Of a DNA stretch of 64,000 bases, positions 40,107-57,412 are shown piece after piece. The stretch is from Candidatus Nanoarchaeia archaeon (GTDB taxonomy: Archaea; Nanobdellota; Nanobdellia; Woesearchaeales; JANQNC01), in the NCBI GenBank assembly GCA_028279745.1, contig JANQNC010000001.1, forward strand, positions 273,876-337,875. The letters run 5' to 3'. Within the stretch, counting starts at the first letter, position 1, and each line of letters begins with the position of its first letter. The position numbers and the translations under genes are program-made. The notes under the pieces are model-generated. The model did no database searches. It was not told where the DNA came from and saw nothing but the letters and a program-made list of their open reading frames with translations.

Positions 40107-41477
40107 ATGAATGTACATTCACTTGAAAAAATATACTTAAAAAGCCCTTTAGCTCTGCAAAACATATTAGTAAGCACTTACGGATTAAGAGAGCAAAGGA
40201 TAAGATACGGAGGCATCTATAAAACACATCATAACTGGTTGCTTAAAACACAATGGTTACCTAAAGACGAACTAAACAAGATAGAAAGTAACTTATTAAG
40301 CCAAACCCTCCAGAATGCATTAGTAAACGTGCCATTCTATAAAGACTTGACTATAAAGAAAGAAGCTAGTTTAGAAGACTTCCCCACAATTCTAAAAAAA
40401 AGGTTTTTTGATGAACCAAACGCATTCTTGTCAAAAAAATTTGCAAACAAAAAATTACTAACTCTCCACACTAGCGGCAGCACAGGGACTCCGTTGGCAA
40501 TAAAAATGAATAAAGATACTAGGCGAAAATCTTACGCATTTATGTCTCGATTTTACAACACGATTGGTTTCAAGGCAGGTGAGAAAAAAGCAACATTTGT
40601 AGGAAGACGAGTTCAACTTCCAGACAATAACAAACCTCCCTTCTGGAGATATAATCTTTTTGATAACCAGCTACTTTTCTCTTCATACCATACAAGCAAA
40701 AAAAATCTTTGCCACTACTTAAAAAAACTGGACAGATTTAAACCAAAACTGATAGAAGGATACTCTTCAAGCATTTTAAGAATTGCCCGACACATCCTGG
40801 AACACTCAGTAAACCTAAACCACGTACCAAACTCAATTGCTGTTAGCTCTGAAACTCTTACAAAAAAACAGAGAGATGAGATAGAAAGTGCTTTTGGATG
40901 TAAAGTGTACAACCAATATGGATCTTCAGAAACTGCTTTATTTGCAAGCGACTGCGAACACCAAAAAATGCACATAAGTCAAGAACACGGAATAATAGAA
41001 GTTCTACAAAAAAATAAGCTTAACCGAAAAGGGGAAGGGGAGCTTATAGTCACAGGATTTATTAACCCTGTAACACCTTTTATACGGTATGCGATTGGAG
41101 ACAGGGGCTCAATCTCTTACAAAAAATGCAAGTGTGGAAGGCAATCACCCATTATTGAAAAGGTTGAAGGTAAGATAAATGACATAATAGTGACCCCTGA
41201 CGGAAATCATGTTCCTTCTGCAGGACTTATCTTGGCGTTTGAGTACTTGAACTCGATCAAAGAATCTCAGGTTGTGCAAGATAAAAAGGATGAAGTTTGT
41301 GTGAACATAGTTCCAAAACTCAACTATAACAAAAAAGAAGAAAAATTCATGCTATGGGAGCTAAGAAAAAGATTGGGAAGCAAAATGAAGATACACATCC
41401 AAAAAGTAAAAGAGATAAAAGTGAGCTCAAATGGAAAATACAAATTTATAGTTCAAAATTACCTTAAGAAAAAATAA
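40107..41477 (+). CDS. Phenylacetate-CoA ligase-like adenylate-forming enzyme (PaaK / CapK / F390 synthetase family)
   Basis: LTLHTSGSTGTPLAI (AMP-binding motif), YNQYGSSE, GD-R-type C-terminal motifs. Confidence 0.7.
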   Translation: MNVHSLEKIYLKSPLALQNILVSTYGLREQRIRYGGIYKTHHNWLLKTQWLPKDELNKIESNLLSQTLQNALVNVPFYKDLTIKKEASLEDFPTILKKRFFDEPNAFLSKKFANKKLLTLHTSGSTGTPLAIKMNKDTRRKSYAFMSRFYNTIGFKAGEKKATFVGRRVQLPDNNKPPFWRYNLFDNQLLFSSYHTSKKNLCHYLKKLDRFKPKLIEGYSSSILRIARHILEHSVNLNHVPNSIAVSSETLTKKQRDEIESAFGCKVYNQYGSSETALFASDCEHQKMHISQEHGIIEVLQKNKLNRKGEGELIVTGFINPVTPFIRYAIGDRGSISYKKCKCGRQSPIIEKVEGKINDIIVTPDGNHVPSAGLILAFEYLNSIKESQVVQDKKDEVCVNIVPKLNYNKKEEKFMLWELRKRLGSKMKIHIQKVKEIKVSSNGKYKFIVQNYLKKK

Positions 41478-48130: not shown

Positions 48131-48421
48131 ATGAGAAATGAAATACTAGAAGAAGTGCCTGAGCTAACAAAAATAAGCTCAAAAGGACAGGTAGTGATAC
48201 CCCAAGAGTACAGAGAAAAATTGCACATACACGAAGGAAACGTTTTTGCAGTTACCGCACCGACAGAAGACATGATTGTCCTAAAGAAGATCAAAAACCC
48301 CATGTTAAGAGATGACCTAACAACACTAAAAAAGATAGATGAAGCATGGGAAGAGATCGAGAAAGGCGAGTTTGAAAAAACAACAAAAAAAGAATTCTTG
48401 AAAAAGCTTGATAAATGGTAG
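48131..48421 (+). CDS. AbrB/SpoVT/MazE-type antitoxin
   Basis: ISSKGQVVIPQEYREKL swapped-hairpin beta-barrel motif; overlaps the downstream toxin by 7 nt. Confidence 0.7.
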   Translation: MRNEILEEVPELTKISSKGQVVIPQEYREKLHIHEGNVFAVTAPTEDMIVLKKIKNPMLRDDLTTLKKIDEAWEEIEKGEFEKTTKKEFLKKLDKW

Positions 48422-48666
48422 ATTACATCATAAGAACCAAAAAGTTTGATAAAGAACTTAAAACAGTCAAGACTAAATCGATAAAAGGAAAAATAAAAAA
48501 ACAAATACTAAAAATTATTGAAAATCCAGAAACAGGCAAACCACTAAAGTATAACCTAAAAGGAGAAAGGACAATCTATGTTAAACCATACCGGATAATA
48601 TATGCAGTAAAAGACAAAACCCTTTTTCTACTACGTTTTGAGCATAGAAAAGAAGTATACAAGTAA
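48415..48666 (+). CDS. RelE/ParE-family toxin
   Basis: 83 aa, ...YRIIYAVKDKTLFLLRFEHRKEVY (RelE/ParE C-terminal signature). Confidence 0.7.
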   Translation: MVDYIIRTKKFDKELKTVKTKSIKGKIKKQILKIIENPETGKPLKYNLKGERTIYVKPYRIIYAVKDKTLFLLRFEHRKEVYK

Positions 48667-48703
48667 TCTTTTATAAACCGCTTCGAAAAGGTTATATATT
48701 ATT

Positions 48704-48743
48704 ATGAATATATATTCATTATAAGTTATGAATAAATATTCTT
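48704..48743. promoter_or_regulatory. Two tandem inverted-repeat sites (ATGAATATATATTCAT perfect 16-bp palindrome; second imperfect copy ATGAATAAATATTC) upstream of the DUF5320/DUF134 operon; candidate operator
   Basis: Read directly from the sequence; about 70-110 nt upstream of ATG 48813. Confidence 0.5.
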
Positions 48744-48812
48744 AACTGGAGGCAAACGGAAAATAAATTTTCCAGGCCTCCTCGAATGAAAAACATAACT
48801 GGAGGAAACAAA

Positions 48813-48932
48813 ATGGCAAACCGAGATGGAACAGGACCAAGTGGAGAAGGGCCCCTAACTGGGAGAAGGATGGGCATCTGTGGAAGGAAACAAAGGAGAG
48901 CGATAGACTTAAATAATGAAAAAGCAGAGTGA
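48813..48932 (+). CDS. Small DUF5320-like protein (39 aa)
   Basis: Below the ORF-track size cutoff. Strong GGAGGAAACAAAATG start context. The product is MANRDGTGPSGEGPLTGRRMGICGRKQRR..., recalling the MPRGDGTGPxGxGPxTGRG family that is frequently paired with DUF134. Confidence 0.5.
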   Translation: MANRDGTGPSGEGPLTGRRMGICGRKQRRAIDLNNEKAE

Positions 48933-48937
48933 AAAGT

Positions 48938-49231
48938 ATGCCTAGACCAAGACTAAGACGAAGAGTGAAAGGAAACCCAAAAATAACTTACTTCAAGCCG
49001 GCAGGAGTAAGGATGCAGGAATTAGAAGAGACAACTCTGACAGTTGAAGAGTATGAGGCTGTGCGGCTAAAAGACTTTGAAGGGTTAGGACAAGAAGAGT
49101 CTGCAGCAAAGATGGAAGTCTCACAGCCAACATTCCACAGATTATTGTTAGATGCAAGAAAAAAGATAGCAGATGCAATAGTAAACGGAAAAGCGATAAA
49201 GATAGAAGGCGGCAGTTTTAAGATAAAATGA
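48938..49231 (+). CDS. DUF134 (UPF0251) predicted DNA-binding protein
   Basis: MPRPRLRRRVKGNPKITYFKPAGV...EEYEAVRLKDFEGLGQEESAAKMEVSQPTFHRLLLDARKKIADAIVNGKAIKIEG matches the DUF134 pattern; start set at ATG 48938. Confidence 0.75.
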   Translation: MPRPRLRRRVKGNPKITYFKPAGVRMQELEETTLTVEEYEAVRLKDFEGLGQEESAAKMEVSQPTFHRLLLDARKKIADAIVNGKAIKIEGGSFKIK

Positions 49232-49602
49232 AAACAGTATTAGTGTTTGGATCAGAGGATTTTGAGTTTGACGATGGGGCAGTTAAGCTAGTTCCAGAAC
49301 TGAAGGAAAAGTTAACAGACTATGTTGTGTTTAAGCTTTCAAGACCTGAACAGATAATGGACTTCTTAGGACATGACTTTATCATACTAGATGTGGCTGT
49401 TGGCATAAAAGAGCCTTGTTTGATTACTGATCTAGACCAGATCAAGTATGGGAAAAAAATAACCGCTCATGATATGGATCTGGCAGCTTTCCTGAAAACA
49501 TTAAAAGAGTTAGGACAGCTTGACTCTGTAAATATTGTGGCTCTGCCAAACGATAAAAAACCCGAGCTGGATAAGGTTATGCAGTTGATAAGAAGTGTGT
49601 AA
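49228..49602 (+). CDS. Hydrogenase maturation endopeptidase (HycI/HybD family, peptidase A31)
   Basis: VLVFGSEDFEFDDGAVKLVPELK (GxxxxGDDG-like), FIILDVAVG (DA motif), TAHDMDLAAFLKTLKE (H-x-M/L box); aligns by eye with E. coli HycI; ATGA overlap with the DUF134 gene. Confidence 0.65.
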   Translation: MKTVLVFGSEDFEFDDGAVKLVPELKEKLTDYVVFKLSRPEQIMDFLGHDFIILDVAVGIKEPCLITDLDQIKYGKKITAHDMDLAAFLKTLKELGQLDSVNIVALPNDKKPELDKVMQLIRSV

Positions 49603-49656
49603 GGGAAAGTTTTAAAAATAAAAAGGATACTTTTTGGATCAGAAGGGGTGAATTAT

Positions 49657-50577
49657 ATGAATAAATCAAAAAAGGGGCTATTACTTGTATTAACAACAGC
49701 ACTGATATCTGGAGTATCAATTTTCTTAAACGGGTTTGGAGTAAAAGGATTTGACTCATCCGTATTTACATTCTCAAAAAACTTACTTGTAGGCGTATTT
49801 TTACTTGCAGTAATAATGGGAGTTGGACAGTTTAGTTCATTGAAAGAGTTAAGCAAAAAACAATGGCTACAGCTAGTTGGCATAGGATTCATCGGAGGAA
49901 GCATCCCTTTCCTAATGTTCTTCAAAGGACTGCAGCTAACAACAGGAACAACTTCTGCATTCATACACAAAACCCTATTCATATACGCATCAATATTCGC
50001 GCTTATCTTTTTGAAAGAGAAACTAACTAAATGGGTCTTAATTGGAGCGGGAATGCTTTTAGTTGGAACCTATTTAATGCTAAAGCCAGACTTCAGCTTT
50101 TCAATAGGGCACTTGTTAATTATTGGGGCAACAATATTCTGGGCAGTTGAGAATGTTTTGTCTAAGCACGTACTTAAAGAAGTTAAAGGAAATGTGGTTG
50201 CATTTGGTAGAATGTTCTTCGGAGCAGGCTTTATCTTTGCTTTCTTATTATTTACAGGAAAGGCACCAACCATAATATCAATGTCTCTCGAACAGTACTT
50301 ATGGATACTTGTAACTACTGTGTTCTTGATGGGCTATGTGATGACATACTACAATGGGTTAAAGCATGTAAAAGTAAGCACAGCAACATCAGTTCTTGCT
50401 TTGGGAGCACCAATAACAACACTGCTTGGAGTTTTGTTTAAAGGCAGCGCAGTGAGCGTCTATCAAGTATTAGGCATGGTGCTGGTTGTTGCAGGAGTTA
50501 TGTCAATAACAATACTATCTTACCTTTCATCATCTGTCGTAAAATCAAGAGATGTGGTTAAAGATGAATGGAATTGA
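49657..50577 (+). CDS. EamA/DMT-superfamily transporter (10 TM)
   Basis: Two EamA-like 5-TM halves; start placed at MNKSKKG. Confidence 0.65.
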   Translation: MNKSKKGLLLVLTTALISGVSIFLNGFGVKGFDSSVFTFSKNLLVGVFLLAVIMGVGQFSSLKELSKKQWLQLVGIGFIGGSIPFLMFFKGLQLTTGTTSAFIHKTLFIYASIFALIFLKEKLTKWVLIGAGMLLVGTYLMLKPDFSFSIGHLLIIGATIFWAVENVLSKHVLKEVKGNVVAFGRMFFGAGFIFAFLLFTGKAPTIISMSLEQYLWILVTTVFLMGYVMTYYNGLKHVKVSTATSVLALGAPITTLLGVLFKGSAVSVYQVLGMVLVVAGVMSITILSYLSSSVVKSRDVVKDEWN

Positions 50578-51274
50578 GCTGGCAATCAGATTTTCTTATG
50601 TTGTTAATTCATTAAGGTACTGTGGACCAGAATCAGAAGATGATTTCTTGAAATATCTCAATGGAGAAAGTAATGAGGAAGAAGTAAAAGAGTTATTCAA
50701 AAAATTTGAAGGATTCAGACCATATATGCAGCTAACATCAGAAAAAACAGGCAAAGATATGTTTGATTATGATGTTATAGAAGCATACTGGTTAGGAAAT
50801 TCTCTTCTTGATGAATTCGATGGAGAAGATATGAAGAAAATAGTTGAGATGCTGGTTACTCGAGGATTGCCTAAGTCAATTGGGGACGAGTTGGTTAAGA
50901 ATATGCCTGCAGAAGCATTTCCTCACCACAGTTTTCATGTAATGTATGTGGGGCCTGGAAGAACAACAGGTACAGTTCCAACAAATATGGATACAATGAG
51001 CAAGTGTATTGCGTCAGAAGCAACAGTTGTTGAAGTTAACGAGGGAGAGTTAGTTGTTAAAACTTGTCCACTTGATAAGAAAGATGATAAATTTGTATTT
51101 GGGGAAGAGATCGAGAAAAAAGTCAAGTGGAAGAAAGAGATAACTCCTTCAATCAAAGTTGGAGATAAAGTTGCTTTGCATTGGGATTTTGCAGGGTTAG
51201 TTCTGACTGAGAGGCAGGTCGAGAATTTGAAAAAGTATACCAAACAGACACTGGATACCGTAAACAACCTATAG
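50564..51274 (+). CDS. Hypothetical protein
   Basis: Clean ORF, acidic, no recognised motif apart from scattered His/Cys. Confidence 0.4.
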   Translation: MNGIELAIRFSYVVNSLRYCGPESEDDFLKYLNGESNEEEVKELFKKFEGFRPYMQLTSEKTGKDMFDYDVIEAYWLGNSLLDEFDGEDMKKIVEMLVTRGLPKSIGDELVKNMPAEAFPHHSFHVMYVGPGRTTGTVPTNMDTMSKCIASEATVVEVNEGELVVKTCPLDKKDDKFVFGEEIEKKVKWKKEITPSIKVGDKVALHWDFAGLVLTERQVENLKKYTKQTLDTVNNL

Positions 51275-51419
51275 ACAGCTCGTAATGCCACAATTTATGG
51301 GTTTTAGATGCCAGAATTCAGAGGTTTAAGACTTTCTTTACTACTTATTAGTGACGATATAATGAAAAGATTTAAATACTAGTTATGAATCACCATACAA
51401 GGCATTAAACAGTTATGAG

Positions 51420-53064: not shown

Positions 53065-53226
53065 TTAAATTTTTTTATTGAATATTCTACTTTTTATACC
53101 ATTGAAACTTATAATGATTAAGCTTACCAAACCTAAAAGAATGACATAAGGGTTAATGCCAAGTTCGTGGTGTGCTTTTCGGTTCACCATTAAAGTGGTG
53201 CCAGAAAACCTTGTTTTCTGTGTCAT
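53065..53226 (-). CDS. Small membrane ORF (53 aa) translationally coupled to hypC
   Basis: Absent from the ORF track. My translation is MTQKTRFSGTTLMVNRKAHHELGINPYVILLGLVSLIIISFNGIKSRIFNKKI, with one TM helix; its ATG overlaps the hypC stop as ATGA. Confidence 0.3.
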   Translation of the reverse strand: MTQKTRFSGTTLMVNRKAHHELGINPYVILLGLVSLIIISFNGIKSRIFNKKI

Positions 53227-53432
53227 TTGAAGTTCTCCTGGTATGTCTTTAATGCAGTTATCGCTTCCTCTTCGGGGATCTTCATTACAACAACCCCTCC
53301 TTGAATGATGACATAGTCCCCCTCTTTATAGATATCTTCAACTATTGCACCTTCTCGTTTTTCTACTCCGTAATCTACGATAGCTTTGTCGTCTTTTATT
53401 TCAACTATCTTTCCTGGGACCGCTAGACACAT
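53223..53432 (-). CDS. hypC: [NiFe] hydrogenase maturation factor HypC/HybG
   Basis: N-terminal MCLAVPGKIVEI (MC(L/I)(A/G)(I/V)P signature), 69 aa. Confidence 0.85.
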   Translation of the reverse strand: MCLAVPGKIVEIKDDKAIVDYGVEKREGAIVEDIYKEGDYVIIQGGVVVMKIPEEEAITALKTYQENFK

Positions 53433-53434
53433 TT

Positions 53435-54250
53435 TTACACCTTAAACATCATCCTAAAAATCTTATCTAACCACTTATCTGGCATTATCCATTTCAAAAA
53501 CATAAACATCTTTCCATCCATCGGAAGAACATATCTTGTTTTTGGATTATTTGACCTGCTTGCTTTATAGATTGCGTTAGCGATAACTTCTCCCGTAGGA
53601 GATCTTTTTGCCCTCTTGACAAAATCAGTTTTTAATGCATTAGTCAACTTCCTGTAGGGTCTAGTCACTTTAACCTTGCCTAGGTGCTGCCAAGCAACTC
53701 GGTATAGATCTGTCTTAATAAAGCCCGGCTCAATCATCACAACGTTTATACCGAGATCTGAAACTTCTTGTCTTAGTGCATCTAATAATCCTTCTAATGC
53801 AAATTTCGAAGCGTTATACCAAGTAATTATGCCTGCCGCAGCTCTTCCTGCAGTAGAAGTTACATTTATTATGTGTCCTGATTTTTGTTTACGCATATGT
53901 GGCAGGACTTCTTTTATTAATCTAGCATATGCAAAAGTGTTTGTTTCTAGTTGGGCTCTTGCTTGATCCATCGTAACATCTTCTAATGAACCATACTGAG
54001 CATACCCTGCATTGTTTACTAACACATCTATTCTTCCTTGCTCTTTGATTAATTTTTTAACAGCACTTTTCACTTGTTTATCATTTCTTACATCAGTATA
54101 TAAAGTTTTACCCCCTAACTTTTCTAGGTCTTTGTCTGATTTTGCTCTAAAGTCAATGGCATATACTATATGCCCTTCTTTAAGAAACCGTTTAGCAGTA
54201 GCTTTACCTATTCCAGAAAATGCACCGGTTATTAAAACAACTTTTTTCAT
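53435..54250 (-). CDS. SDR-family short-chain dehydrogenase
   Basis: VVLITGAFSGIGKATAKRF (TGxxxGIG), NNAG, YNASKFALEG (YxxxK). Confidence 0.85.
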   Translation of the reverse strand: MKKVVLITGAFSGIGKATAKRFLKEGHIVYAIDFRAKSDKDLEKLGGKTLYTDVRNDKQVKSAVKKLIKEQGRIDVLVNNAGYAQYGSLEDVTMDQARAQLETNTFAYARLIKEVLPHMRKQKSGHIINVTSTAGRAAAGIITWYNASKFALEGLLDALRQEVSDLGINVVMIEPGFIKTDLYRVAWQHLGKVKVTRPYRKLTNALKTDFVKRAKRSPTGEVIANAIYKASRSNNPKTRYVLPMDGKMFMFLKWIMPDKWLDKIFRMMFKV

Positions 54251-54570
54251 TCTTCCACCTCGACACTCTTCAGCACAATGTCTTCGCCTTCTAGTACCTC
54301 AGGCACTTCACCACACTTAGGACAAAAAAATATATTCATATCATGTGAATGAGCCTCTATCTTTGGTTGGCCCTCAAAACCACACTTGCATTTTACTTTT
54401 GCAGGAGTCTCAATAACTTCAACTTCAAAATCTGCATGATCTTTTAACACGTTTTCCATATCTTTTGCAGGCAGATGAGCTAAAGCCCCACACTCAACTG
54501 TAATCTTCTTAACTTTACCTTGTTGTTTAGCTTGCTCGATAATGTTATGAGCCATAGCGTGTTCATGCAT
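54247..54570 (-). CDS. hypA: [NiFe] hydrogenase nickel-incorporation protein HypA
   Basis: MHEHAMAHNIIE (MHE N-terminus), CKCGFEG...CPKCGE zinc site; start set at M-H-E. Confidence 0.8.
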   Translation of the reverse strand: MHEHAMAHNIIEQAKQQGKVKKITVECGALAHLPAKDMENVLKDHADFEVEVIETPAKVKCKCGFEGQPKIEAHSHDMNIFFCPKCGEVPEVLEGEDIVLKSVEVEE

Positions 54571-55861
54571 CTTTCCTTTTACCTTCAAACTCTACTTCCA
54601 AGAAATGTGTTGAACATGAAAAGCAAGGATCATGAGATCTTATGAGTTCCTCTACTTTTATGATCAATTCTTCATTATTGAGATCTAGGATGTTTGGCAA
54701 GTATTCTTTTATTGCATCTTCCATGCACTTAAGGTTTTGAACTGTAGGAGTTACAATGTTAGCTTTAGTTATTGTGCCAGAATCGTCAACCTCATACTCA
54801 TGGATCAAGAAACCTCTTGGTGCTTCAGTAACACCAACACCTCTGCCTGCTTTAACTTCTGCCTTGATAGGTTCCTCATCTTGAACTTTGAAATTTTCTA
54901 ATCTTTTGATTATCTCTTCAATATAATGAACAGTTTCAATACCTTGCGCGAAAGGTATCAAGAAAGGATTATTCGATGGGAACTTAATACCTGACTCTTC
55001 AAGAACTTTCTTTGCATTCTCATTTAATAAGTCAAGATTATTGTTCATCCTTGCCAAAGAACCGACCATATACGACTTTCCATCTTTAGTTATGAAGTTA
55101 CAAGTAGATCTTTCTTCATGATACTCCTTAAAAAATTCATCAAACTGTTCTCTCGTATAAGTTTCACCAGTTGAACAGTATAAATCTCCAGTCAGCATAG
55201 GATACGTGTTTTCTTCTTTTATTGAAAAATACATTGTTTCCCTTTCAAAATCAGGATACTCTAAAGTTCCAAACAGCTTAGCTGCTTCAATTGCATCAGG
55301 TAATGCTTCTTTCAATCTTTGAACTAACTGATCAACTTGTTCTTGAGAAGGCGTCTTGTAAAAACCTCCAACCTGTGCAGAAACAGGATGTAAATCTCTG
55401 CCAGCAATTGTGAAAATTATGTCATTCCCTAACTTCATAAGCTTTAGTGCCCTAAGCACAACGTCTTTATGGGTTTTAGCCAAATCCATACCAGACTCAG
55501 CACCCAGATAATCTGGCAAAGATAAAAAGTGCATGTGAGTAATGTGAGATCTTATCCTTTCTCCGATTGTGAATAGTTCCCTCAATAGTTTAGTTTGTTC
55601 GGTTACTTTAACACCCACTGAATCTTCAATAGCATAGATTGCTGCAATCTGGTGAGCACAAGAACAAATCCCACAGATTCTTGATGAGATCTCTGGAGCT
55701 TCATAATAACGTCTGCCTTTAAGCATACCTTCAAAATATCTGGAACCTTCTATTGATTCTAGCTCGCATTTCTTAATCTCGTTATCTTCACCAATATTAA
55801 GTAAAAGCTTAGCGTGTCCTTCGACCTTTGTTATATTGTTTAATTCAACTACTCTAGCCAT
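54563..55861 (-). CDS. [NiFe] hydrogenase large (alpha) subunit, group 3b sulfhydrogenase-type
   Basis: N-terminal RICGICSCAHQIAA (L1 CxxC) and C-terminal DPCFSCSTH (L2 DPCxxCxxH). Confidence 0.9.
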   Translation of the reverse strand: MARVVELNNITKVEGHAKLLLNIGEDNEIKKCELESIEGSRYFEGMLKGRRYYEAPEISSRICGICSCAHQIAAIYAIEDSVGVKVTEQTKLLRELFTIGERIRSHITHMHFLSLPDYLGAESGMDLAKTHKDVVLRALKLMKLGNDIIFTIAGRDLHPVSAQVGGFYKTPSQEQVDQLVQRLKEALPDAIEAAKLFGTLEYPDFERETMYFSIKEENTYPMLTGDLYCSTGETYTREQFDEFFKEYHEERSTCNFITKDGKSYMVGSLARMNNNLDLLNENAKKVLEESGIKFPSNNPFLIPFAQGIETVHYIEEIIKRLENFKVQDEEPIKAEVKAGRGVGVTEAPRGFLIHEYEVDDSGTITKANIVTPTVQNLKCMEDAIKEYLPNILDLNNEELIIKVEELIRSHDPCFSCSTHFLEVEFEGKRKDA

Positions 55862-56616
55862 TTTTTCTTAGCATCCTCTTTCTCTTTATATTTTAAACCT
55901 TCGAAAGCATCAATCCTTTGTTTGATGAATTTCTCATCATACCCTTTCTCTTTTAAAACTTTGATCATAAGTTCAAAATTAGCATCCTGAGCAGGGCCTC
56001 TGCAACCCCAACAAACTAATCCACCATTAGTGCAGACTGAGTTACAGCCCCCATTAGTTACAGGACCAAGACACGGAAGACCTTTTTCTAGTAAACAAGG
56101 ATTTCCGTTATGCCTGCACTCAATACAAACGGGTTTTGAGTACATCAAAGGTTTTTTGCCTCTTAATAAGTCATCAATAAACCCAAGAATCTCTTTTTTA
56201 TCTGGAGGACAGCCTTGGATGTAATAATCTACTTTAACATATTTGTCAACAGGACTTGGATCAACATCCGTAATCTCTAAAGCTTTATGGTAAATTAATG
56301 GTTGAATGTTTTCAGGAGGTGTGAAGTTTCTTAATGCTGGAACTCCTCCAGTAGTTGCACACGCACCTAAAGCTATGAAAATATCACATTGATCTCTGAT
56401 CTTTTTTACCATCTCTTCATCGTGCTTAGATGTAACAACCCCTTCAAAGAAAACAATGTCTAAATGCCCGTCATACACTTTTTCTTTAATGAACGGAAAA
56501 CTTTTTACATCTATCTTTTCTAAAACTCCCAATAACTCTTCCTCGTTAAATATAACTGAAAGTAGACAACCTTGACATCCTGTCACGCTATAAAATCCTA
56601 CTTTAGGCTTAGTCAT
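55849..56616 (-). CDS. [NiFe] hydrogenase small (delta) subunit, group 3b
   Basis: MTKPKVGFYSVTGCQGCLLS, GACATTGG, GCPP motifs; start set at MTKPK. Confidence 0.85.
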   Translation of the reverse strand: MTKPKVGFYSVTGCQGCLLSVIFNEEELLGVLEKIDVKSFPFIKEKVYDGHLDIVFFEGVVTSKHDEEMVKKIRDQCDIFIALGACATTGGVPALRNFTPPENIQPLIYHKALEITDVDPSPVDKYVKVDYYIQGCPPDKKEILGFIDDLLRGKKPLMYSKPVCIECRHNGNPCLLEKGLPCLGPVTNGGCNSVCTNGGLVCWGCRGPAQDANFELMIKVLKEKGYDEKFIKQRIDAFEGLKYKEKEDAKKKWLE

Positions 56617-57412
56617 TTTTGAAATTCTCCAGCTCATCCCATCTAAAGACAGGACCATCTAAACAAGTATATTTGCCATGAATCATGCAATGACCACACA
56701 TTCCTAAAGCACATTGCATCAATCTTTCAGCACTTAAGAAAATTTGTTCCGATTTGAAACCTTTTTCTTTCAGTAATCCTATTATCTTGTTGATCATGAT
56801 AGGTGGACCGCAAAGGAATGCAACAGTGTTTTCGCTGTTTATATCTAGTTCTTTCATCCTTTCCATCAGATAACCCGTTTTCATCTCAAAACAAGCCAGG
56901 TCATCACCTTCTTCTGCTTTGTCAACAGACATCATCAAATTGTATTTATTTTTCCATTCAGGAGTTTCTCTTCTGAATAAAACATCATGAACACTTCTAT
57001 AACCGAAGAAAAGATCGATGTTTTGGTAGTCTTCTCTGTTCTGGTCAACATAATCAATAATCCCTTTTAGTGGAGCAACACCACAGCCGCCACCTATGAT
57101 CAAAAGGTTGTTGCCTTTTAGCTCTTGCATAGGATAACCTTTACCGTAAGGACCTCTGACCCATATCTCGTCACCTTCTTTTAGCTTTCCAAGACTGTTT
57201 GTTACTGAGCCAATCTCTCTAACGTTTAGTTTCATGTGATCTTTTGAATATGAACAGATAGAGATCGGAGCTTCACCAATACCTGGGAGAGATACTTGAA
57301 TGAACTGACCTGGTTCGTGGTCAGTTTTGAAATCTATCACGATAGAGAAATTATCAGGGCTTTCTCTATAAAATTCTAAAATTTTTACCTTTTGTGGGAT
57401 GTAGTCATTCAT
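56609..57412 (-). CDS. Sulfhydrogenase gamma subunit (FAD/NAD(P)-binding, 2Fe-2S)
   Basis: FNR-like fold and C-terminal CALGMCGHCMIHGKYTCLDGPVF cluster motif. Confidence 0.8.
   Translation of the reverse strand: MNDYIPQKVKILEFYRESPDNFSIVIDFKTDHEPGQFIQVSLPGIGEAPISICSYSKDHMKLNVREIGSVTNSLGKLKEGDEIWVRGPYGKGYPMQELKGNNLLIIGGGCGVAPLKGIIDYVDQNREDYQNIDLFFGYRSVHDVLFRRETPEWKNKYNLMMSVDKAEEGDDLACFEMKTGYLMERMKELDINSENTVAFLCGPPIMINKIIGLLKEKGFKSEQIFLSAERLMQCALGMCGHCMIHGKYTCLDGPVFRWDELENFKND

Follow-up and report, generated by a model that had tools for sequence, protein, structure and literature searches.

The close packing of a gene for a predicted DNA-binding protein of the DUF134 family against one for a protein resembling hydrogenase maturation proteases, behind a pair of palindromes, raises the question as to whether positions 48684-49602 of this stretch of a Candidatus Nanoarchaeia archaeon genome encode a module dedicated to the hydrogenase that lies about 5 kb away. 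The whole stretch of DNA analysed, hereafter the window, is 64 kb long, and an initial annotation made from its letters had proposed such a regulatory or maturation module. Our analysis favours a different reading, to which we give a probability of roughly 60%, namely that the region is an autoregulated DUF5320-DUF134 cassette, probably repressed by promoter occlusion, which has captured a minimal protease of the MEROPS A31 type in this lineage. The region would then be one transcription unit made from two parts of different origin, the first of which (a TATA box, an operator, a DUF5320-type mini-protein and the DUF134 helix-turn-helix protein) is a cassette common in DPANN-type archaea. The cassette and its conserved promoter-operator architecture are our main result, and a compact protease family that evades standard score thresholds is a secondary one. 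In the literature searched we found no functional study or operator description for DUF134/UPF0251/COG1342/PF02001 or for DUF5320, and no description of the operator and promoter layout or of the compact protease family.

The features on which this reading is built are listed below with their window coordinates and strand (nt, nucleotides; aa, amino acids).

48684-48698, plus strand: BRE/TATA-like promoter element, with a BRE-like (transcription factor B recognition element) CGAAAAG at 48684-48690 and the TATA box GTTATATA at 48691-48698
48704-48719, no strand: operator site 1, a perfect 16-bp palindrome ATGAATATATATTCAT, core TGAAT-ATAT-ATTCA at 48705-48718
48728-48743, no strand: operator site 2, an imperfect copy ATGAATAAATATTCTT, core at 48729-48742
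48743-48813, plus strand: long 5' leader of about 70 nt
48814-48932, plus strand: 39-aa DUF5320-type mini-protein (MANRDGTGPSGEGPLTGRRMGICG...), identified with Pfam, stop codon at 48930-48932
48938-49231, plus strand: 97-aa DUF134/UPF0251 protein, identified with Pfam
49228-49602, plus strand: 124-aa HycI/HybD-type (MEROPS A31) endopeptidase-like protein, called from fold, residues and context

The three genes are as tightly packed, and stand at the same coordinates, as had been annotated, the ATG of the DUF134 gene (48938) lying 5 nt past the stop codon of the mini-protein open reading frame (ORF) and the DUF134 stop running into the start of the protease gene as ATGA.

A conserved operator behind the TATA box

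The perfect 16-bp palindrome and the imperfect second copy that had been noted from the sequence are both present, at 48704-48719 and 48728-48743. Site 1 begins 6 nt past the TATA box, the starts of the two sites are 24 nt apart and the sites lie 95-110 nt upstream of the ATG at 48814. Site 2 carries 2 mismatches over the 16-mer, while its 14-nt core (TGAATAAATATTCT) has 1 mismatch. When up to 3 mismatches were allowed the 16-mer had 4 matches in the window, against a mean of 0.96 in shuffled sequence, and 0 of 100 shuffles reached 4.

In order to see whether the palindrome is conserved in related genomes, the absence of which would have told against the annotation, we searched 80 metagenomic loci that carry a close DUF134 homologue (331 kb in total, collected through DUF134). 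TGAAT-N4-ATTCA occurs in these at 108 exact sites, where about 1.1 would be expected from the base composition, and 107 of the sites are upstream of DUF134. At least one site is found in 66/80 loci, and in 39/41 of those whose upstream sequence reaches 1.5 kb or more. The commonest form across the loci is that of the window, TGAATATATATTCA, with the same 14-mer at the same promoter position in about 50 DUF5320/DUF134 loci.

The surrounding promoter layout is shared as well. The consensus CnnAAAnnTTTAAATAnTnTTA stands immediately before TGAAT upstream of 48 distinct primary operator sites, the operator of the related loci lying about 5 nt after the TATA box and being followed 20-45 nt on by GGAGG and the DUF5320 ATG. 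A second site at exactly +24 accompanies 13 of 49 distinct primary sites, with only three weaker matches at any other offset between -40 and +40 (two at +26 and one at +17), and the window has this +24 tandem form, with one mismatch. In many loci the spacer between DUF5320 and DUF134 contains a further operator promoter, its palindrome stopping 2 nt short of the DUF134 ATG, as would fit a leaderless transcript. The next gene after the operator sites encodes, almost without exception, a DUF5320 variant, DUF134 or an EncFtn-like protein. As a negative control we utilized 99 kb of sequence without DUF134 from the loci of 8 proteins homologous to the protease, and this contained no site. None was found near the hydrogenase or hyp promoters of the window either, which rules out an operator in front of those genes. 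Judged by these comparisons the palindrome is a genuine conserved operator-like element and not a chance occurrence, and the operator idea is supported far more strongly than the initial annotation could know.

Two further places in the window resemble the operator. The one additional exact core, TGAATGTACATTCA, at 40108-40121 overlaps the ATG of a gene for a PaaK/F390-synthetase-like adenylate-forming enzyme (40107-41477) and has a TATA-like element some 20-30 nt upstream; the chance expectation is about 0.2 exact sites per 64 kb. At the DAHP synthase promoter (51365-51399) TTTAAATActagtta is followed by TGAATCACCATACA, in the TATA-spacer-TGAAT layout seen at the operator but with a degenerate second half-site.

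The DUF134 protein and its small partner gene

The family call made for the 97-aa protein was confirmed by a profile search, with Pfam DUF134 (PF02001) matching at E=8.2e-28 and 97.3 bits, against a gathering cut-off of 27 bits, over profile positions 6-97 of 98. Additional Pfam matches are to sigma-70 region 4, and the protein is in these respects a clear member of DUF134/UPF0251 (COG1342) with a sigma-70 region-4-like helix-turn-helix. Homologues fall into more than 1900 clusters at E<=1e-10, the best 120 having 67-77% identity, and those with names are mostly from DPANN-type metagenome-assembled genomes (Woesearchaeota, Aenigmarchaeota, Nanoarchaeota, Diapherotrites).

A search of PDB sequences with the DUF134 protein found nothing. 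In an AlphaFold (AF2) model the core has a predicted local distance difference test (pLDDT) score of 81-89, and the modelled three-helix core (residues ~35-83) superposes on extracytoplasmic function (ECF) sigma region 4, DeoR-N and GerE at 0.6-1.0 A over about 47 residues. These fold matches have a probability of 1.00 with weak E-values of 0.03-0.1, as the domain is short. The recognition-helix motif SQPTFHR is present in 63/80 of the related loci, and S62, Q63, P64, T65, F66 and R68 are invariant in an alignment of 40 DUF134 sequences.

The operator might instead belong to a different regulator. An ArsR/SmtB-, DtxR- or Fur-type global metal repressor, for example, with DUF5320/DUF134 as one of its targets and DUF134 serving some other purpose, would suit the metal-related cargo genes described below, the exact site at an unrelated gene at 40108 and the half-matching site behind a TATA box at 51386; the operators of the ArsR/SmtB family also have a TGAA...TTCA core. 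We nonetheless regard another owner as unlikely, given that essentially every site in the 331 kb is at DUF5320, DUF134 or EncFtn-like genes with none elsewhere in intergenic sequence, that no other helix-turn-helix gene recurs as a neighbour across the 80 loci, and that the operator and the DUF134 recognition helix are both near-invariant. Since DUF134 alone among DNA-binding proteins is always found with the site, and has a sigma-4-like fold with an invariant recognition helix, autoregulation by DUF134 is the most economical explanation.

The DUF5320-like label of the 39-aa mini-protein fits its N-terminal part, the match to Pfam DUF5320 reaching E=1.1e-8 and 36.6 bits against a cut-off of 27, although over the N-terminal 28 of the 99 profile positions only. 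The ORF had been reported as missed by the ORF track; a 48-aa reading from the ATG at 48786 is given both by an ORF listing of the window and by public gene callers, so the ORF was not universally missed. The ATG at 48814 is preceded by GGAGG 7 nt upstream, and is the likelier start because homologues begin MPxxDGTGP directly after GGAGG.

The mini-protein shares with DUF5320 (PF17253) the Gly/Pro-rich, Cys-containing N-terminal motif DGTGPxGxGPxTGRxxGxC, and its gene likewise comes immediately before DUF134. At least 50-52 of the 80 loci have a DUF5320-like gene on the DUF134 strand and upstream of it, in most cases as the adjoining gene. These copies are mostly 76-96 aa long with a C-terminal coiled coil, whereas that of the window lacks the coiled coil and, at 39 aa, is the shortest DUF5320-type protein among the loci; it resembles a short subclass of 47-57 aa that has no coiled coil. 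We rejected the possibility that the mini-ORF is a pseudogene, as the Pfam match is significant and the short subclass exists elsewhere.

In a number of loci variants of the small protein stand in this place. A Trp-rich DUF5320 variant (MPWGDGTGPWWAQGRGWRCW...) follows the operator, upstream of DUF134, in L037, L039, L052, L066, L081, L083, L087 and L090, and a Lys/Gly-rich variant of 43-48 aa follows it in L027, L031 and L075, which points to a partner protein far more variable than either DUF134 or the operator.

In the leader in front of the mini-protein the ribosome-binding and start region (TAACTGGAGGAAA at 48796) has a degenerate second copy, TAACTGGAGGCAA at 48743, 53 nt away. The insert is absent from the related loci, with their operator-to-ATG distance of 20-45 nt. 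A predicted leader hairpin pairs GGAGGC with GCCUCC (minimum free energy -23.2 kcal/mol, z-score -3.0). A scan of 48400-49800 against Rfam gave no match, and thus no known riboswitch or leader.

Proposed regulation of the cassette

In archaea the TATA box has its centre some 26 nt before the start site. On this spacing the operator would cover approximately -16 to -3, and the +24 site would lie just inside the transcribed region. We propose that the DUF134 protein binds the palindrome, most likely as a dimer, and represses rather than activates its own promoter, the bound protein keeping RNA polymerase off the promoter occupied by TATA-binding protein (TBP) and transcription factor B (TFB). 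The Cys-containing mini-protein could serve as a partner, sensor or anti-factor, and repression could be released by a signal tied to metal, cofactor or Fe-S status. Both of these steps are speculative, and the nature of the signal is suggested by the cargo genes (NifX-like, ZIP, EncFtn-like and Fe-S ATPases). As the protease gene stands directly behind DUF134 with an ATGA overlap it would be expressed from the cassette promoter, and its product would cut the 13-residue tail that follows the His of DPCFSCSTH in the hydrogenase large subunit once nickel has been inserted.

MDR1, NrpR, TrmB and Phr are archaeal repressors that prevent the recruitment of RNA polymerase by binding palindromes which lie between TATA box and start site. 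The cassette is like the systems of this type in having a palindrome directly downstream of the TATA box, the layout of an autoregulated operon, tandem sites and metal-related cargo genes. It is unlike them in that its protein, for which binding and repression are proposed here, is sigma-4-like and not of the winged-helix, DtxR or TrmB type, and in that it includes a small Gly/Cys-rich partner gene.

The coupling to the protease appears to be local

Co-occurrence of DUF134 with hydrogenase maturation genes was addressed through the gene neighbourhoods of the 80 loci, using a search radius of 4 kb around DUF134 for the protease. The protease was found in 0/80. The reciprocal comparison agrees, as no DUF134 gene and no operator was present in the loci of the 8 protease homologues. 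A scan of a genome collection found only 2 protease loci. The nearest relatives carry the labels Nanoarchaeota, Woesearchaeota, Aenigmarchaeota and similar.

The genes that do travel with DUF134, downstream of it or interleaved, encode Nitro_FeMo-Co/NifX-like proteins (24 loci), ZIP transporters (10), EncFtn-like proteins (7) and DUF123 (6), together with a MinD/NUBPL-type ATPase with a ferredoxin insert and P-type ATPases. Judged by gene content, this cargo has to do with the handling of metals and cofactors and not with hydrogenase.

The closest protease homologues (68-73% identity; L008, L009, L010 and L012) have a ZIP transporter gene 1-2 nt upstream, and EamA and DUF6390 genes downstream as in the window, where the contig is long enough. 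More distant homologues adjoin HypC or radical-SAM genes. An ancestral DUF134-ZIP-protease order was considered and set aside, since L012, the one relative with sequence upstream of ZIP, has neither DUF134 nor the palindrome there. Together, the lack of co-occurrence and the ZIP gene of the closest relatives indicate that the coupling is specific to this genome or lineage, and the DUF134-protease link appears, from these gene orders, to be a local event. The cassette of the window shows signs of rearrangement, with a truncated mini-protein, a duplicated leader region, no internal promoter, a Cys-less DUF134 protein and an adjoining toxin-antitoxin pair.

A local event of this kind could be a juxtaposition that has no regulatory meaning, in which the protease and EamA-DUF6390 genes use signals of their own and the cassette was inserted upstream of them, perhaps along with the toxin-antitoxin pair. 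This would agree with a coupling unique to this genome, with the presence directly upstream of a toxin-antitoxin pair (typically mobile), and with the truncated mini-protein and the duplication scar in the leader. We consider it quite improbable, however, as the ATGA overlap leaves no space for an intergenic promoter and inspection by eye of the end of the DUF134 gene found no TATA-like element at the right distance. In addition, the protease gene of the relatives is joined within 1-2 nt to the gene upstream and so appears to rely on upstream promoters.

A compact protease-like protein and its presumed substrate

The assignment of the 124-aa protein to the A31/HycI family holds. Its fold, ligand residues, substrate tail and gene context support the call, whereas the profile scores fall short, Pfam HycI (PF01750) matching at E=5.1e-4 and 20.3 bits against a cut-off of 23, and NCBIfam TIGR00072 at 15.1 bits against 47.45. 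A word-indexed search returned 13 close relatives, of which 13/13 match Pfam HycI weakly (best E=1.6e-4). An exhaustive profile search extended the family to 625 cluster representatives (50% identity, E<=1e-3), nearly all of 120-135 aa; in a family alignment of 101 of these, 57 match Pfam HycI, with a best E of 5.1e-7.

An AF2 model built from the 13 close relatives has a pLDDT of 86, and all five structure matches with E<=0.001 are HybD or HycI chains (E 1.9e-6 to 3.2e-4, probability 1.00, TM-score up to 0.70), the top PDB matches being 1cfz (HybD, E=1.9e-6), 5ija (Tk-HybD, TMq 0.70), and 2kml and 2e85 (HycI). The metal-ligand triad of an acid in the GNxxxxD[DE] loop, an Asp after strand 3 and a His is present, and when the protein was aligned with HycI and HybD of E. 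coli (MAFFT) the residues D16, D55 and H81 corresponded to HycI D16, D62 and H90. G8, D55, H81 and P107 do not vary among the 101 representatives, and D15 hardly does (>=90%).

The hydrogenase genes and those that follow them, all on the opposite strand, are as follows.

54563-58389, minus strand: four-subunit, group 3b-like hydrogenase, with NCBIfam sulfhydrogenase alpha, beta, gamma and delta as best matches
54563-55861, minus strand: hydrogenase large subunit, the presumed substrate, with the C-terminal extension FLEVEFEGKRKDA encoded at ~54566-54604
54247-54588, minus strand: HypA, following the hydrogenase operon
~53223-53441, minus strand: HypC, likewise following the operon

The large subunit does carry a C-terminal extension, as would be needed for a substrate of such a protease, with DPCFSCSTH followed by the 13 aa FLEVEFEGKRKDA. 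The tails of relatives are 11-13 aa long (FLDVTFVGPRADK, FLDVTIEGREK), and protease homologues adjoin HypC, HypA and a four-subunit 3b-like hydrogenase in L001, L004 and L013.

The window protein is thus like HycI/HybD/HoxW (MEROPS A31) in its alpha/beta fold, in its aligned acidic and His ligands, in the position of its family's genes beside hydrogenase, HypA and HypC, and in a substrate tail after DPCxxCxxH. It is unlike them in having about 124 residues as opposed to 156-164 (some 30 fewer), in falling under the profile cut-offs, in the conserved E-D that its close family has in place of the usual G-N, and in that position 16 is variable in its family and D15 is the conserved acid. On the strength of the modelled fold, conserved residues, substrate tail and context, we hold that the protein is probably a minimal, divergent endopeptidase of the HycI/HybD type.

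The shorter length, the scores under the cut-offs and the variable acidic ligand position could alternatively reflect a degenerate paralogue that is inactive as an endopeptidase and has another role, for example as a chaperone of the large subunit. This is decidedly improbable in our view, because D55 and H81 are invariant and D15 nearly so, the fold matches HybD/HycI, the substrate keeps a tail that needs removal, and no second HycI-like ORF was found within the 64-kb window.

In two of the homologue loci (L004 3865-6564 and L011 696-2105) the protease gene adjoins radical-SAM/BATS genes; in L004 one of these carries a fused HypC domain and has HypA and a [NiFe] hydrogenase as neighbours. The pairing is unusual and hints at a non-standard route for synthesis of the active-site ligands.

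Neighbouring genes

The hydrogenase was labelled from its best NCBIfam matches and its Pfam domains. The former are ShyA/HydA, ShyB, ShyC/HydG-type (AsrB highest) and ShyD/HydD, all under the equivalog cut-offs, and the Pfam domains of the four genes are consistent with the sulfhydrogenase type. The group 3b hydrogenase that had been annotated about 5 kb away is here called 3b-like; it lies on the minus strand and is accompanied by HypA and HypC. Where the hydrogenase operon ends, hypA and hypC are separated by a short-chain dehydrogenase gene (53435-54250, minus strand).

That the three genes form a dedicated group 3b hydrogenase module, with DUF134 tied to hydrogenase maturation generally, would fit their operon-like packing and the 3b-like hydrogenase, HypA and HypC genes some 5 kb away, but is highly improbable and is already largely refuted by the neighbourhood census, in which DUF134 and the protease do not meet. 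Against it are also the usual cargo of NifX-like, ZIP, EncFtn-like and Fe-S ATPase genes, DUF134 clusters in the thousands as against a close protease family of 13, and the lack of an operator upstream of the hydrogenase operon.

The genes on either side of the cassette and protease are the following.

48131-48666: overlapping genes for an AbrB/MazE-type antitoxin and a ParE/RelE-type toxin, directly upstream of the cassette promoter
49648-50577, plus strand: EamA-family transporter, identified with Pfam
50552-51274, plus strand: DUF6390 protein, identified with Pfam

The overlapping EamA-DUF6390 pair is near the mini-protease in all relatives with enough sequence (for example L001 3758-5522, L008 1032-2646 and L013 13668-15306). 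It follows the protease in L008-L010, is beside HypA and hydrogenase in L001, and in L013 is encoded on the other strand, some 3.3 kb downstream from the protease and HypC. From this gene order EamA and DUF6390 are candidate unrecognised hydrogenase accessory genes, and the pair may have its own promoter in the window.

Weighing the evidence

A number of observations weigh against the reading of the region as an autoregulated cassette with a captured protease. As the operator loci were collected via DUF134, another regulator could, on the sequence comparisons, own the site, and an internal promoter for the protease is possible. The DUF134 protein of the window has zero cysteines, unlike its close homologues, among which Cys7 is present in 34/40 and Cys55 in 24/40 of the aligned sequences. 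This may reflect the loss of a sensing function, and together with the shortest mini-protein of the set it means that the cassette of the window may be partly degenerate. Compared with other loci the leader is longer by about 50 nt, and it contains a predicted hairpin, so that additional control is possible.

For the protease, beyond the HycI Pfam and NCBIfam scores under their cut-offs, the canonical ligand position 16 is acidic (D) in only 2/13 close relatives. Searches of PDB sequences with the 124-aa protein and with the 13-member and 101-member profiles gave no significant HycI/HybD match (best relevant E 0.2-1), and when the family was compared with E. coli HycI by hhalign the probability was only 12%. 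Comparison with HycI by sequence alone was not significant, and the comparison of folds was therefore needed.

Significance

DUF134/UPF0251 is an old and abundant family, and the precise operator described here, which follows the TATA box by about 5 nt and often recurs at +24, makes its proposed function directly testable. The operator, the small partner gene and the set of metal and cofactor cargo genes provide a concrete handle on what has been an 'unknown DNA-binding protein'. The family of ~125-residue hydrogenase maturation proteases to which the window protein probably belongs escapes standard profile cut-offs, and this bears on any judgement as to whether small DPANN genomes can mature group 3b hydrogenases. 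The link between cassette and protease seen in this window should not be generalised.

We suggest tentatively, as an idea more apt to fail than to hold in full, that DUF5320 and DUF134 together may constitute an undescribed two-protein transcription switch used by DPANN-type archaea, and perhaps by many anaerobes besides, in which a sigma-4-like helix-turn-helix protein binds TGAAT-N4-ATTCA, the mini-protein acts as a metal or Fe-S sensor or anti-factor, and the pair controls genes for the supply of metal cofactors, such as those for NifX-like carriers, ZIP importers, encapsulated-ferritin-like proteins and Fe-S ATPases. If this is true, the two-protein switch would in this genome have been linked to the last, nickel-dependent step in the maturation of the hydrogenase.

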